Assembly: GCA_963727805.1 (NCBI GenBank)
Contig: CAVSHF010000003.1
Span: 2,112,001 to 2,176,000, forward strand
DNA: 64,000 bases
DNA from: an uncultured Nitrospiraceae bacterium
GTDB lineage: Bacteria; Nitrospirota; Thermodesulfovibrionia; Thermodesulfovibrionales; Dissulfurispiraceae
Direction of reading: 5' to 3'
Below, piece after piece: positions 50,722-56,490 of the stretch (its first letter is position 1; each line of letters opens with the position of its first letter). The notes below the pieces were generated by a model. The model saw nothing but the letters and a program-made list of their open reading frames with translations, ran no database searches and had not been told where the DNA came from. The position numbers and the translations under genes were made by a program.

Positions 50722-51594
50722 ATGGACTTGATTGTAAAAGCCATAGCCAGAACAGGGCCTATCGCTGTAACGGTCCTCGTGAATACTTCAACAGTCGAGA
50801 AGGCGCGAACCCTGCATGATACGTATCCGACGGCAACAGCAGCACTTGGCCGGACCATGACGGGAGTTATGCTCATAGCATCGCTCCTCAAGGAAGGTCA
50901 GAAAATTTCCATGCAGATCGTGGGAGATGGCCCCCTCAAAGAAGTCTTTGCCGAAGCAGACTGGCTTAGTAGAGTGCGGGGATACGTAAGAAAGCCCCAC
51001 GTCTTCATGGGCCTAATCGGAGAGAGCCTCGATGTAGGCAGGGCTATAGGTCCAGGGTATCTCCATGTGATAAAGGACCTCGGTCTCAGGGAGTCTTATC
51101 ACAGCAGCATTCCTCTTCAAACAGGCGAAATAGCATCTGACATCGCTTATTACCTGAGTGTTTCGGAACAGTTTCCGGCGGCTATCTCACTCGGTGTTTA
51201 TGTCGATACCGATAATTCAGTCAAGGCGAGCGGCGGCTTCCTTGTCCATACCATGCCGAGTGCAGACGATTTGCTCGTCACCTACATGGAAGACAGGATT
51301 AGCACAACACCCACCGTAAGCTCGATGGTCCTTGATGGAAGGACACCCGGAGAGATCATACACGAGATCCTCGGCATGCCCTTCGACATCATTGACCAAA
51401 GAGACGTATCTTATTACTGCCCCTGTAGCAAGGAGCGAGTCCTGCGGGCCCTCATCACCCTCGGCCAACAGGACCTACGCGAGATGATAGCTCAAGAAGA
51501 ACCCCTTGCTATACAATGTCATTTCTGCAAGACCGATTATTCAGTGACACCATTGGAACTTGAGGATTTGATACGGGAGATGCAGGCTGGATAA
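50722..51594 (+). CDS. hslO: Hsp33 redox-regulated chaperone
   Basis: AALGR, GDGPL, GEIA.D..YY...SEQ, C.C...C..C zinc motif. Confidence 0.95.
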   Translation: MDLIVKAIARTGPIAVTVLVNTSTVEKARTLHDTYPTATAALGRTMTGVMLIASLLKEGQKISMQIVGDGPLKEVFAEADWLSRVRGYVRKPHVFMGLIGESLDVGRAIGPGYLHVIKDLGLRESYHSSIPLQTGEIASDIAYYLSVSEQFPAAISLGVYVDTDNSVKASGGFLVHTMPSADDLLVTYMEDRISTTPTVSSMVLDGRTPGEIIHEILGMPFDIIDQRDVSYYCPCSKERVLRALITLGQQDLREMIAQEEPLAIQCHFCKTDYSVTPLELEDLIREMQAG

Positions 51595-51620
51595 TATGCC
51601 CGTCCTACAAGTTCCAAATT

Positions 51621-51726
51621 TCATTTGATCTGACCCCTCATCTCCCCGTCGGGATATTTTTCAGTATGGATATTAATATAATAGTCTCCGTTCGTAAGCT
51701 GCTGGTACAATTCCCAAACTGTTTTA
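51621..51726 (-). pseudogene. CHRD-domain gene, 3' part (separated by IS607)
   Basis: Own translation KTVWELYQQLTNGDYYINIHTEKYPDGEMRGQIK* carries the CHRD Y.N.HT..YP.GE.RGQ motif. Confidence 0.9.
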
Positions 51727-51900
51727 CCGTTCCTAAAAGCATGTGATTTTATATAGTGCCTTAAAAAGGCTTTAATATAGTGATACACTCACATTCGCCA
51801 GCCGAACAGTGTTACTGACTTCCGCCAGATGGTTTCCCTCTGGAACCCGGCGAACCATCCGTAGCGGGTGTAGGCCCTGCCGCTGTGGATAGAGGTACTC
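51727..51900 (-). ncRNA. Putative omegaRNA/reRNA scaffold of TnpB
   Basis: Position overlapping the tnpB 3' end up to the right end; hairpins GATGGTT...AACCATC and GCGG...CCGC; 5' boundary uncertain. Confidence 0.55.
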
Positions 51901-53305
51901 CTCTTGCCGGGTTGCTTGATTGCCGGCTACCTGAGCGTAAGTCCTTTCGGGCTCGCTCAAGCACCCGGGAGACGGCACGCCAATCCGACCAGACATGCTT
52001 CGATCGATTCCTTGCAGGTAGATCGAAGGTGTATCTTAGTCTTCGTGTAGCGAACCGCTCCCCGAAACCGAGACCCCGTCTGGCTATGGCTACTGCCGCT
52101 GCCTGATGCGGGGTTAATTTATATCCTGCCCCGAACTTCACCAATCCGATTACACTGGTGTACGCCGGGTTAATGCCTATCACTTCCACACCTTCCCTGA
52201 ATGCCTTACTAAGAATTAGATTTTTGAATGCCGTGTACGCCATCATCGAAACCTTGCGATTGGACTTACTGCTCCGTCCGGACTTCTTCTTGTCAAGATC
52301 GAGGTTCTCGATTACTATGGGCACCAGGTTGCCTTTGGCATACTGAACTACAGATGCAACTGTGTCTCCAAGTAACGCCGCTATCTGATGCTTCGTCTTT
52401 CCGAAAAGAAGCGTCGGGATGTTCCATGCTTCAGTGGGATTACCGGAGGCGTCGACCCTCGATACCGCGATATGATCTGCGTTCAGATCGAGTCCGAGAG
52501 CCCCGTGCTCTCTGGCGGTGACAGTAGCAACTTCAACCCGTTCCGTAGTCGCATGCACGTACCAGCCCTTGTCTTTACGGACAAACAGATAGCTTATGGC
52601 CTGACCAGCCAGCAGAGCGCTATTAATTATCTCCTGTCCGTGAGGGAAAACAACGGGGACTGCGATATGAGTCCCGAACTCACCGGCCAAAGCATTCGGG
52701 AGTCTCAGCTGCAGTCCCTTGGGTAGATACTGGCAGGTCTGGTTGCCAAACGATTCGTCCTTGCTGCCCAGACAATAGAATTGTGACGCTCTGGCAGACT
52801 GCCAGTCCGCAAGCCATTCAGTATGAGACCCATAACCGTTATCCTTAAGGCTGAATTGCTTTCTGAACAGATTTCTGGAGCCGAAGCAGATGGATGGCGT
52901 ATCAGACTTTGTCCGTTCTTCAAGCACAGACATCTTGTGCTTAAGGTGGGAACCCTGTCGTTTGTATTGGTGTATTTTAAACCAGTTTTTTGGGTTGTCA
53001 TTAAGAGCGGACTTAATGCGTTTAGTAACCGCCTCTAGTTTCCGTTTCTTAGTATCCAGATTACGCAGAAGTGCCTGTTTGTTAGCTTCGACTTTCCCCG
53101 ACAGGTTGAAGATGACACCGTTTAGCTGTCTGCCGGTAATCCCATATCGCTTAAGAAAAGATCGCTTCAGTTCATTGCGATCACCATGTTTAATATACCT
53201 CTCTTTGAAGTAGAGCCGCTCCACCTTGTCCATAAGCGCGGATGTCGCTTCCAAAGCAGGATACAGAGAAGTGTCTTTAATCTTGCCGCAGACGGTTATT
53301 TGCAT
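51812..53305 (-). CDS. tnpB: TnpB-related RNA-guided nuclease (atypical, no Zn ribbon)
   Basis: RuvC-I GLDLN, RuvC-II IVIENL, NPAYTS, then HQAAAVAIARR with no CxxC pairs. Confidence 0.88.
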   Translation of the reverse strand: MQITVCGKIKDTSLYPALEATSALMDKVERLYFKERYIKHGDRNELKRSFLKRYGITGRQLNGVIFNLSGKVEANKQALLRNLDTKKRKLEAVTKRIKSALNDNPKNWFKIHQYKRQGSHLKHKMSVLEERTKSDTPSICFGSRNLFRKQFSLKDNGYGSHTEWLADWQSARASQFYCLGSKDESFGNQTCQYLPKGLQLRLPNALAGEFGTHIAVPVVFPHGQEIINSALLAGQAISYLFVRKDKGWYVHATTERVEVATVTAREHGALGLDLNADHIAVSRVDASGNPTEAWNIPTLLFGKTKHQIAALLGDTVASVVQYAKGNLVPIVIENLDLDKKKSGRSSKSNRKVSMMAYTAFKNLILSKAFREGVEVIGINPAYTSVIGLVKFGAGYKLTPHQAAAVAIARRGLGFGERFATRRLRYTFDLPARNRSKHVWSDWRAVSRVLERARKDLRSGSRQSSNPARGVPLSTAAGPTPATDGSPGSRGKPSGGSQ

Positions 53306-53307
53306 AG

Positions 53308-53885
53308 TTACTCGCTCTTGGCCTCTTGATCCTGCAATGATTGTAATGCCTTCTTCGCTTTATTTTTGGCAGATCGCTTGCCGTAGAGCCTCGCACAAAA
53401 AGAGGTCAGCACCGCGATCATGTCTTCCACCAGGTCATTGGTGAGTTCCGAAGGGTCAACAACTACTAATTTCCTGCCTTGGGCGGCGAGGGCTGACTCC
53501 ACATACTCGGCGCCAAACCTCATTAAACGGTCACGGTGTTCCACTATGATAGTAGTGTACTTCGGGTCGGCAAGCAGCTTCATAAGCTTCGGGCGATGCC
53601 CGTTTAGTCCACTGCCGATCTCGGGACTACCTGATGAATGGCATAACCGTTCTCTGTGCCCCACATGGTGATTCTCGCCACCTGCCCTTCAATATCGTTT
53701 TTCTGGTCGTGTGACGACACCCTGACATAAGCTGCCGTCTGTCCTTGAGCAGACTGAGCCGGGGTAATGATGATCGTCCCCGAGGCAGTCTGATATGCTG
53801 GCACAGGAAGTTGCCCCTTTTTAAACCACAGAAACGCCGTCTGATACTTGATGCCCTGCGATTTTGCCCATTCGCTTAGTTTCAT
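53308..53885 (-). pseudogene. tnpA: IS607 serine recombinase TnpA, frameshifted near 53625
   Basis: MKLSEWAK HTH, YVRVSS.DQ catalytic motif, then a frame break into EIGSGLN, VEHRDRL.RFG, LTSFCARLYG. Confidence 0.92.
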
Positions 53886-53945
53886 ATTGTATATATTAAT
53901 GTATATTACGTATTAAAAACAGCTATCTAATGGCGCTGTTGTAAA

Positions 53946-54320
53946 CCCTTAAACGACGACATCAGGTCCTCTGCTCCGATAGAGCCCTCAGCCAGGGTGC
54001 CGCTTATCTTCCCTTTATTCTTTGCCCTTATAGCAATGAGTGCGATCGGTGGTCCGTTCTCGCCAACCTTGCCTATATAGATGTGGGCGGCTGTGATATT
54101 TTCTAAATCCGAAGCAGTGACAGTGTAAAACAGCAATGTGCATTCCCTACTAAGCGGAAAGGTCGCTTTGCCTTTGGCATCCGTCTTTATTGGAGGAACC
54201 ACCTTGAGCCGCTCATAGTAGCGCTGAGTTCGGGCAGATCTCTAATGTAGCCATACTCAGCCATGCAGACTTCGCAAAAGCGATAATCAGGATAATGATC
54301 AATACAAGTACCTTCCTCAT
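53946..54320 (-). pseudogene. CHRD-domain secreted protein gene, 5' part
   Basis: Signal peptide MRKVLVLIIILIIAFA, VVPP..T.A.G.A.F, ITAAHI..G..GENGP; two extra frameshifts; cut by IS607. Confidence 0.85.
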
Positions 54321-54482
54321 TATTACTTCCTCCTCTGACAATTTTTATCTCAGTATGGTTGCAGCATATCTGGCCACGGCGTGTTAAATACTGGGGAACA
54401 AGTTTCCTTGGTTCCTGCAACATCCTATATATTATTGACATTAGCTTTCTGTCGTTTTAAGATATAACCTAATCGATTTGAT

Positions 54483-54590
54483 ACGCCGAAATCTATAAAT
54501 TATGGATGCGGGGGAACCGGATAACGGGGCGAATTCCATTGTGGATAGGACACTTCCAAGTCCGAGCCCGTCAGCTAACCTCGTAGGCGA
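54483..54590 (+). ncRNA. c-di-AMP (ydaO/yuaA) riboswitch
   Basis: CGCCGAAA...GCGGGGGAAC...GGGGCGAAT...CCGAGCCCGTCAGCTAACCTCGTAGGCG matches the ydaO consensus blocks; lies upstream of kup. Confidence 0.92.
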
Positions 54591-54675
54591 CTGGAAGGCA
54601 ATATGGCAACAATCATTCTTTGCTGGCACTCCGGCATTTTCTTAGTGCCTCTCCTTACCCATCCCGGGAGCGCCA

Positions 54676-56490
54676 ATGCTTGTTAAGGAGTCACCCGCCA
54701 AAGGGATAATCAAGTCACTAGGCCTTGTTTTCGGCGACATCGGGACAAGCCCCATTTATACCCTTACCGTCGTATTCCTGCTCACAAAGCCGACCGCTGA
54801 CAACATCTTCGGCGTCATATCCCTGGTCGTCTGGACCCTGGTCATCCTTGTTACTATCGAATATGCCTGGCTCGCTATGAGTCTCGGGAAGAAGGGCGAG
54901 GGCGGGACTATCGTGCTCAGGGAACTTCTCATCCCATTGCTCAAATCCGGAAGAAAGGCTGCTTTTGTTACATTCCTGTCCTTTATTGGTATATCTCTGC
55001 TTATCGGCGACGGCGTAATCACCCCTGCCATCAGTATTCTCAGCGCCGTAGAAGGTTTGCTGCTGATCCCCGGTCTTGAGAGCACAGCACAGGAAATGCT
55101 GATACTCATTGCGGGGATTATTGCTATACTGCTCTTTTCGTTTCAAAGAAAGGGGACCGAAAAGGTCTCGGTCGCCTTCGGCCCAATCATGATTGTCTGG
55201 TTTGCGGCGCTGGCAGTTTCTGGCGTCTTGTCCATTTTGGAGTTTCCAACCATACTCAAGGCGGTCAATCCATATTACGCCATACGCTTCCTTGTCGAGA
55301 ACGGCATCGCGGGTTTCTTTGTTCTCTCCGAAGTCATCCTCTGCGCAACAGGAGGCGAGGCCCTCTACGCCGATATGGGGCATCTCGGCAGAAAACCGAT
55401 AACCAGGGCATGGTATTTTGTCTTTGTCGCCCTTCTGTTGAATTATCTTGGCCAGGGGGCGTTCGTCATCACCCATCCTGGGAGTAAGAATGTCCTCTTC
55501 GAGATGATCTTCACGCATTTCCGAATATTGTATGTCCCCTTTCTCATCCTGAGCATAATGGCTACGGTAATAGCCTCCCAGGCGATGATAAGCGGCATGT
55601 TCTCGATCGTATACCAAGGTATTACAACACATGTCATGCCCCTTTTTAAGGTCGATTACACATCAGAAGATCTGCGGTCCCAGATCTATATCGGCTTTGT
55701 AAACTGGTTCCTGCTTATCGCTGTCTTGTTCATCATGTATGAGTTCAAGGAATCGAGCCGCCTTGCCGCTGCCTATGGCCTTGCCGTTACCGGCACCATG
55801 ACGCTTACCGGGATTATGATGACTTGGATATTCAGTCTCAAGAAGAACAAACTTTACGCGGCGGCTTCGGCATTCGTGGCGGTTGTCGATGTCGTGTTTC
55901 TGGTGTCCAATATCTATAAAATACCGCACGGTGGCTATTGGTCTATCATCATTGCGGCGATCCCGTTATGCGTAATTATCCTCTATACGCGCGGGCAAAA
56001 GAGGCTCTACAGCACTATGAAACCCCTGGATAAAAAGGAATTTCTCACGCGATTCGAGTGGGCCTACAAGAACATGAGCAGGATAACGGGTACGGCCCTT
56101 TTCTTTGCGCGGGGAATCGAAAAGGTGCCTCCTTACATCGTCAACACGATGTTTTTAAATAATATCCTCTATGAGGACAATATCATTGTCTCTATCATCC
56201 GGAGAGACGATCCTTTCGGAGTCACCGGCTATTTCAAAGACCTCCATGTGGATGGTTTGAGGATATTCGAGATACAGGTCGGGTATATGGAAATGTTCGA
56301 TGTTGAGGAGATACTTCGAGACGCAGGCATAGAAGAAAAGGTCATATTCTATGGCCTTGAGGACATCGATACCAGGAGCATCGTCTGGAAGATATTCTCA
56401 CTGATAAAGAAACTGAACCCCACCTTTGTACAGTTCTACCGGCTGCCGTCTCACAAGCTTCACGGTGTCGTAACCCGCGTCGAGATGTGA
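54676..56490 (+). CDS. kup: KUP/HAK/KT K+ transporter
   Basis: LGLVFGDIGTSPIY, GEGG, GDGVITPAISILSAVEG, TGGEALYADMGH, AYGLAVTGTM. Confidence 0.97.
   Translation: MLVKESPAKGIIKSLGLVFGDIGTSPIYTLTVVFLLTKPTADNIFGVISLVVWTLVILVTIEYAWLAMSLGKKGEGGTIVLRELLIPLLKSGRKAAFVTFLSFIGISLLIGDGVITPAISILSAVEGLLLIPGLESTAQEMLILIAGIIAILLFSFQRKGTEKVSVAFGPIMIVWFAALAVSGVLSILEFPTILKAVNPYYAIRFLVENGIAGFFVLSEVILCATGGEALYADMGHLGRKPITRAWYFVFVALLLNYLGQGAFVITHPGSKNVLFEMIFTHFRILYVPFLILSIMATVIASQAMISGMFSIVYQGITTHVMPLFKVDYTSEDLRSQIYIGFVNWFLLIAVLFIMYEFKESSRLAAAYGLAVTGTMTLTGIMMTWIFSLKKNKLYAAASAFVAVVDVVFLVSNIYKIPHGGYWSIIIAAIPLCVIILYTRGQKRLYSTMKPLDKKEFLTRFEWAYKNMSRITGTALFFARGIEKVPPYIVNTMFLNNILYEDNIIVSIIRRDDPFGVTGYFKDLHVDGLRIFEIQVGYMEMFDVEEILRDAGIEEKVIFYGLEDIDTRSIVWKIFSLIKKLNPTFVQFYRLPSHKLHGVVTRVEM

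Follow-up and report, generated by a model that had tools for sequence, protein, structure and literature searches.

An IS607-family element in a CHRD gene

The DNA analyzed here is a 64-kb window (64,000 nucleotides, positions 2,112,001 to 2,176,000 of contig CAVSHF010000003.1, assembly GCA_963727805.1) from an uncultured Nitrospiraceae bacterium. It holds an element of the IS607 family that splits a gene for a CHRD-domain protein and carries a serine recombinase gene, tnpA, followed by a tnpB gene. All coordinates are positions in the window, and the element reads on the minus strand.

51727..53945, minus strand: IS607-family element, 2219 bp (frame restored on removal, empty-site contig, conserved ends)
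53308..53885, minus strand: tnpA serine recombinase pseudogene, in pieces 53604-53885 and 53308-53664 (NF033518, Pfam Resolvase)
51812..53305, minus strand: tnpB, 497 amino acids, RIIIr-4 type, with D273, E333 and H400, no C4 zinc finger and a premature stop at 51814
53946..54320, minus strand: 5′ part of the CHRD gene, with an N-terminal hydrophobic stretch and frameshifts near 54271 and 54204 (Pfam, orthologue alignment)
51621..51726, minus strand: 3′ part of the CHRD gene (Pfam CHRD positions 89-117, orthologue alignment)

The initial annotation had read the element ends from the split gene, and both junction strings are present in the window as it gave them. In-silico removal of 51727-53945 (2219 bp) leaves the CHRD frame open through F-K-G-K-T to the natural stop, as had been claimed. 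Removal of 51728-53946 or 51729-53947 gives the identical product, because GGT, and not only GG, is common to both junctions and the boundary can slide over it; three other cuts that we tried broke the frame. Crossover cores of GG and GT predict the same empty site and are not separated by sequence alone. The Pfam CHRD domain matches at positions 11-70 on one side of the element and continues at 89-117 on the other. Among 40 other genomes searched, six have CHRD orthologues, and the rejoined C-terminal half aligns with the intact orthologues without a gap at the junction in all six, at 33-53% identity.

Contigs from four sequencing runs (X1, X2, X3, and X5) were compared with the window. An X2 contig of 591 letters (depth 10.8) has a joint at 51725/53945 that leaves out exactly 2219 bases, which supplies the uninterrupted CHRD allele that the initial annotation had suggested looking for. 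The shorter side of this contig measures 223 letters, three letters at the joint suit both sides, and the contig differs from the window at 31 further points; another X2 contig, which is more distant, shares that joint, with one other letter. Extra single bases at 54204 and 54271 occur in X2 at a depth equal to that of the empty-site contig, which is itself gapped twice there, and we infer that this contig represents a frame-intact CHRD allele. The element ends and the empty site are as described, with hardly any room for doubt.

Both junctions carry GG, there is no target-site duplication, and the empty site is scarless. The profile NF033518 matches both tnpA pieces (positions 2-93, E 5.5e-17; positions 95-187, 122.6 bits against a cut-off of 110), and tnpB lies downstream, so that the family assignment made earlier stands and the element is an IS607-family member by every feature tested. 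A blastn search of the genome found one full copy, together with a 289-bp right-end remnant, 78% identical, on contig C5 at 1241232-1241523 (minus strand).

Conserved ends, target consensus and predicted motif

The left end and its flank, where a target-adjacent motif (TAM) would be expected, are as follows.

53886..53945, minus strand: left end, 60 bp ahead of the tnpA start, beginning TTTACAACAG (in relatives TTGACAACAG / TTGAGAACAG)
53946..53949, minus strand: left flank AGGG, with the GG crossover core (inferred) and the predicted TAM GGG or RGGG (23 left ends; PMC6188088)

Loci related to the element were gathered from genomes, metagenomes, and viral contigs, the last contributing one distant locus. 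In an unselected blastn search with the right end, 31 other loci (some of them duplicates) matched up to the terminus. In all 31 the match ran no further than five bases past the terminal GG, ending at GG itself in one and continuing for one to five bases in the other 30. The proposed boundaries are shared by other copies. Among 94 loci scanned, the right end was recognized in 62 by a motif ending in CGG, and dropping six duplicates left 56 distinct right flanks, including those of the window and the C5 remnant. The base after the right end is T in 50, C in five, and G in one, and positions from +2 onward are mixed. Left junctions were sought in L091 and in the 41 loci that had sequence upstream, and 23 ends were accepted, chosen partly by eye and anchored on GG; the duplicates L055 and L067, L020 (at a contig edge), and L013, L072, and L073 were dropped. 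Position -3 is G in 23/23 left ends (14/14 close relatives) and position -4 is A in 13, G in eight, and T in two (a purine in 21/23), while positions from -6 outward are mixed. In this genome, GG is preceded by G at a background frequency of 0.22 and followed by T at 0.215; related loci are not independent, so nominal P values overstate the target bias. The same ends thus occur at unrelated sites, 56 distinct flanks on the right and 23 on the left, as expected of a mobile family, and these aligned ends show a target consensus of R-GGG-T.

The earlier proposal that the left flank ends in the TAM is kept in a narrower form. The G at -3 and the purine at -4 across relatives indicate that the TAM is likely GGG or RGGG, and the flank farther left is uninformative. 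A predicted TAM ending in GGG is, in our judgment, the probable one. The left flank reads GGG and the right end CGG.

Plasmid matches to the element were all below 60% identity. Two of three fetched plasmid loci close with GAACGG followed by T, and the third has no GAACGG-T motif within the range scanned; all three were kept out of the end counts. A 14-mer resembling the left end at C3:2106207 was discarded because it leads into an ordinary gene start.

Right-end RNA and guide

The right end has the following predicted RNA features.

51727..51913, minus strand: predicted omega (right-end) RNA scaffold, overlapping the tnpB 3′ end; a minimum extent that may begin further upstream (folding, covariation)
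51797..51819, minus strand: covarying hairpin, complementary to the element end in its loop (51804-51810) (37 sequences)
51726..51732, minus strand: terminal GAACGG and the flank T next to it, predicted to pair with the hairpin loop as a pseudoknot (37 sequences)
51707..51726, minus strand: predicted native guide in the right flank, starting at 51725 instead if the T belongs to the scaffold (by analogy with IS607 TnpB papers)

The right end folds more stably than shuffled sequences (z = -2.6; 3/200 shuffles were equally good). An alignment of 15 close relatives contains several stems from approximately 51913 down, with double changes in 12 of 76 pairs. Across 37 right ends, the hairpin at 51797-51819 has double-sided changes at six of the seven stem positions tested. 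Hairpin and pseudoknot together have 94% of cells paired, compared with 84.8% when shuffled (0/500 shuffles as good) and 27-52% when slid; the pseudoknot helix alone reaches 97.7%, and most of the covariation lies in the hairpin. Conservation across the right flanks drops after +1. Like the canonical systems of the OMEGA type (obligate mobile element-guided activity), the element is thus predicted to have a structured right end with a terminal pseudoknot and a variable guide. No Rfam family was found at the right end. As the initial annotation expected, this end would very likely yield a guide RNA bound by TnpB, judging from the covarying hairpin and the predicted pairing with GAACGG.

The prediction of a guide in the right flank was upheld, and its first base is uncertain by one. 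If the scaffold ended in GAACGGU, the TAM would be GGGT and the guide would start at 51725, with the same target in a register shifted by one. The T in 50 of the 56 distinct flanks, far above its background, suits this register, and so does the seventh pseudoknot pair, in which the flank T can pair with a loop purine in 33/37 sequences. At L012, C occupies the position at both ends. In published work, a primer used by Nety 2023 (PMC10278001) places the scaffold end after U, and Yoon 2023 (10.1101/2023.08.09.552727) assigns the first flank base to the scaffold in IS607 TnpBs. On the other hand, the base differs between the left and right junctions of L020, L056, L069, and L102, and loop and flank bases do not clearly covary (A-T 34, G-T 12, A-C 2, G-C 2, G-G 1). 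A TnpA preference for GG-T would account for the T equally well, and the Cbo scaffold ends in UCGG (10.1101/2023.11.20.567912). We regard the shifted register as rather unlikely and place the predicted guide start at 51726.

The predicted guide has no match elsewhere in the genome, the best other site having six mismatches. The C5 remnant keeps the hairpin and the terminal GAACGG followed by T, with a flank that is also unmatched elsewhere in the genome; it could be a second source of guide RNA for the same TnpB. No intron family was found in 51000-55000 at E-values up to 5, and the left end is only 60 bp long, so the element does not have the makeup of an IStron.

A TnpB with a rearranged active site

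The tnpB gene begins two bases past the tnpA stop. Its product matches NF040570 at E 1.4e-14 (under the 100-bit cut-off), TIGR01766 at 46 bits (cut-off 32), and Pfam PF07282 at only E 0.021. A PDB sequence search with the TnpB alignment returned 0 chains at E 0.01, and matches in the ESM Atlas were limited to unnamed or 'transposase' clusters.

Residue conservation was counted in the best 120 of 722 TnpB homologues. D273 is kept in 119/120 and E333 in 116/120. The position that would hold the third, RuvC-III aspartate is a histidine, H400, in 112/120; the rest are six gaps, one Tyr, and one Asp. A CxxC motif occurs within the last 30% of the chain in two of these homologues and not in the window TnpB, which, unlike a canonical OMEGA TnpB, has no C4 zinc finger between RuvC-II and RuvC-III. 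From the Asp-to-His change in RuvC-III, the loss of the zinc finger, and the shared right end, the protein is assigned to the RIIIr-4 clade. It is an aspartate-glutamate-histidine (D-E-H) protein and not a canonical TnpB nuclease.

Among seven genes, the ratio of non-synonymous to synonymous substitution rates (dN/dS) over tnpB codons 1-440 is 0.06-0.14 in 21/21 pairs, with dS often saturated. These substitution patterns show that the tnpB lineage is under purifying selection and that the protein does something. The gene is kept without tnpA in 12 of 15 close relatives (at least 60% identity, window and L085 left out), and tnpB-only derivatives (L019, L021, L023, L025-L028, L032, L048, and L069), which have their own left end of 100-120 bp, outnumber the tnpA-bearing copies in this lineage.

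We also noted mini-elements consisting of the left end, the first tnpB codons, and the last 30-130 right-end bases, at L014 (G004:C176, approximately 1415-1730) and as joints 51753/53265 and 51858/53273 in X1, X3, and X5.

What such a protein does to DNA is a separate matter. Cleavage cannot be assumed in its branch, and we put the chance that it makes double-strand breaks at about even. An alternative keeps the element and the guide RNA and supposes that the D-E-H TnpB leaves double-stranded DNA uncut. It would instead bind or nick, or have single-stranded DNA or RNA as its substrate, and help the element by another route. The prevalent histidine and the absent zinc finger would fit this, as would the one RIIIr-4 protein screened by Nety 2023 (PMC10278001), orthologue 39, which processed RNA without TAM activity and for which other substrates were suggested. 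That negative is a single case (n = 1) in an assay that failed for 32 of 59 orthologues. D273 and E333 are retained, Altae-Tran 2023 (PMC10691335) took conserved rearrangements as a sign of activity, and a GGG left flank facing a CGG right end suits the self-avoidance of a cutter. On this evidence, a TnpB without double-strand cutting is possible but somewhat doubtful; targeting, in contrast to the active site, likely works as in a canonical TnpB nuclease with its D-E-D triad.

State of this copy and its host gene

This copy is not an intact mobile unit. One base is missing near 53624, and the resulting frameshift in tnpA means that the copy is not self-mobile by its own TnpA. Copies in three of the four runs (X2, X3, and X5) carry the extra base at 53624, for which reason a programmed frameshift was rejected. 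In tnpB, a stop at codon 498 (51814) cuts off a 17-residue tail; the 12 closest homologues have 509-515 residues, and contigs of three runs have a sense base at 51814. The same mutation turns a C-G pair of the hairpin into U-G, which still pairs, so the RNA is spared. A promoter scan gave seven hits against 4.3 ± 1.9 expected, which is the chance level. None of the sequencing runs listed for this DNA was an RNA run, which carries no weight as to expression.

The CHRD gene has two frameshifts beyond the insertion. An empty site in this genome would thus not yield an intact gene, and, judged from its reading frame, the CHRD gene here is a pseudogene even if the element were removed. The target proposed earlier, the uninterrupted CHRD allele, accordingly survives as an empty site and not as an intact gene of this genome. 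In the related strains of runs X3 and X5, a joint at 51662/54427 marks the absence of 51663-54426 (2764 bases); this deletion takes in the element site together with most of CHRD, leaves the last 42 CHRD bases, and has break points that differ from the element ends. The tnpA frameshift, the two CHRD frameshifts, the tnpB stop at 51814, and the D-E-H/RIIIr-4 type were all overlooked in the initial annotation.

These lesions raise two further explanations, which, like the others considered here, are not mutually exclusive. The copy might be wholly dead, TnpB included, and persist as a neutral fossil in a pseudogene. The damage to tnpA, tnpB, and CHRD, the single copy, the deletion of 51663-54426 in the X3 and X5 strains, and the lack of any matching target left in the genome all speak for this. 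On the other side, tnpB still reads through 497 codons and retains every RuvC motif, the lost tail motif is found in only 14/120 homologues, and the 51814 change preserves the hairpin pairing, so that we hold complete inactivity to be possible but below an even chance. Alternatively, the frameshifts could be assembly errors in an intact, active element, as four single-base lesions inside 2.5 kb of a 5-contig assembly might suggest. Otherwise identical X1 contigs share the letters at 53624, 54204, and 54271 (the source sample may be X1 itself, and no such contig spans 51814), and the neighboring genes are full length, which makes assembly error very improbable.

On one side of the CHRD gene, an intact Hsp33 chaperone gene (50722-51594, plus strand; Pfam HSP33) converges on its 3′ end. 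On the other, a Kup-type potassium transporter gene (54676-56490, plus strand; Pfam K_trans) is divergent from it and is preceded by a cyclic di-AMP riboswitch at 54474-54604 (plus strand; Rfam RF00379, 94 bits).

A second, unrelated IS607 family is present on contig C3 at approximately 305.7-307.9 kb (minus strand) and 2009.8-2012.6 kb (plus strand), in two 94% identical copies with a zinc-finger TnpB. In the copy at 2009.8-2012.6 kb, tnpB is split by a group II intron of approximately 630 bp (Rfam RF01999 and RF00029) that has no long open reading frame on its strand.

Proposed mechanism and significance

We propose that the locus is a single IS607 insertion in a CHRD pseudogene, whose D-E-H TnpB is probably guided to the empty site behind GGG. 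TnpA would have put the element in by recombination over GG, as in other IS607 systems (PMC6188088). TnpB would bind the right-end RNA, with the next 16-20 flank bases serving as guide to the empty site, and would recognize the rejoined site behind the GGG motif. The occupied site would be spared because the element closes at its right end in CGG and not in GGG. TnpB might then cut the empty allele, and repair from the occupied copy would keep the element. As TnpA is broken in this genome, the element is expected to excise only rarely, and a role for TnpB would remain only against an incoming empty allele.

Several observations weigh against this proposal. The RuvC-III residue is His and not Asp, so the protein departs from the canonical D-E-D triad, and this copy of tnpB has the stop at 51814. 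The pseudoknot helix is mostly invariant (double change in one of seven pairs), and its 3′ strand was picked by motif. The distant left-end candidates that were dropped (L013, L072, and L073) read AGG, not GGG. The empty allele was found in one of the four runs, and the match of the X2 allele to all 20 guide bases is not visible among the differences listed. The measured IS607 TAMs cited below belong to other TnpBs, and the sole RIIIr-4 row in the screen of Nety 2023 was TAM-negative, though so were 32/59 orthologues in total (27/59 positive).

A broader, speculative possibility, which we consider improbable, is that TnpBs of the RIIIr-4 clade work as RNA-guided effectors of a chemically different kind. 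They would bind or nick instead of cutting, or cut a substrate of another type, and the first base of the flank would belong to the scaffold, so that the GGG-T preference of TnpA, the pseudoknot, and the TAM form one coupled constraint. If true, this lineage, mostly tnpB-only and kept by purifying selection, is where such a constraint would be shown.

The element is ordinary as far as the IS607 insertion and its readable ends go, and the logic of TAM and guide has been published for three IS607 TnpB groups. Its value is modest and lies in offering a test case for an uncharacterized TnpB clade, one of the five major ones, with one negative test in the literature searched. For this lineage there are ends, dozens of independent insertions that define the target consensus, an RNA structure, and intact homologues, which makes cutting by a D-E-H TnpB directly testable. 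The window copy would be a poor reagent, and intact relatives such as L020 are better suited.

Comparison with known systems

The closest parallels in element architecture are IS607 of H. pylori, IS1535, and ISC1926, which have GG at their junctions and a (G)GG target (Chen 2018, PMC6188088). Like the window element, they carry tnpA, encoding an N-terminal DNA-binding part and a resolvase domain, followed by tnpB; they make no target duplication, and no terminal inverted repeat is seen at the printed ends. Chen 2018 reports no further target preference for IS607, whereas the window lineage favors T after GG and a purine before GGG. Only the window element has a frameshifted tnpA.

Reading TAM and guide from IS607 ends has precedents in Yoon 2023, Zedaveinyte 2023, and Ren 2024 (PMC11061315). 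The measured TAM is GGG for ISXfa1 TnpB, with a right end of CGG (Yoon 2023, 10.1101/2023.08.09.552727), and TGGG for CboIStron TnpB (Zedaveinyte 2023, 10.1101/2023.11.20.567912). Both systems share with the window the GGG left flank, the CGG right end, an RNA overlapping tnpB, and a pseudoknot that joins a loop to the end of the scaffold. Both are shown cutters, ISXfa1 with a typical active site, unlike the window TnpB with its RuvC-III His and absent zinc finger. The window lineage also differs from them in its TnpB of 497-515 amino acids and in an element in which no intron was found. For the IS607 TnpBs associated with RAGATH-18 and ISFba1, TAMs of AGGAG or GAGGG were reported (Ren 2024); these resemble the predicted motif in being G-rich and matching the left flank (GAGGG in 4/22 strains). 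The proteins have a D-E-D triad and approximately 390 amino acids and use RAGATH-18 RNA, a family that Rfam did not find at the right end of the window element.

The nearest relatives in protein type are in the RIIIr-4 clade, defined by the Asp-to-His change in RuvC-III and the loss of the C4 zinc finger, for which Altae-Tran 2023 argued that conserved rearrangements imply activity. One of the 59 orthologues in Supplementary File S2 of Nety 2023 is labeled RIIIr-4, namely orthologue 39 from Nocardiopsis dassonvillei. In the literature searched, which lacked most subscription journals, there was no RIIIr-4 test beyond this negative one, and the accessible text of a review (PMC13565253) does not contain 'rearrange', 'histidine', or 'RuvC-III'. 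A processed RNA of 466 nt was clearly obtained for orthologue 39, whose primer places the end of the scaffold at GGAACGGU. By eye, the motifs of orthologue 39 are like those of the window TnpB, with a RuvC-III His, no C4 finger, a length of approximately 500-530 amino acids, and a right end of GGAACGGT. It is listed without a transposase, whereas the window element has a serine recombinase partner; and where orthologue 39 gave no TAM, the window lineage has a target consensus drawn from 23 left and 56 right ends.

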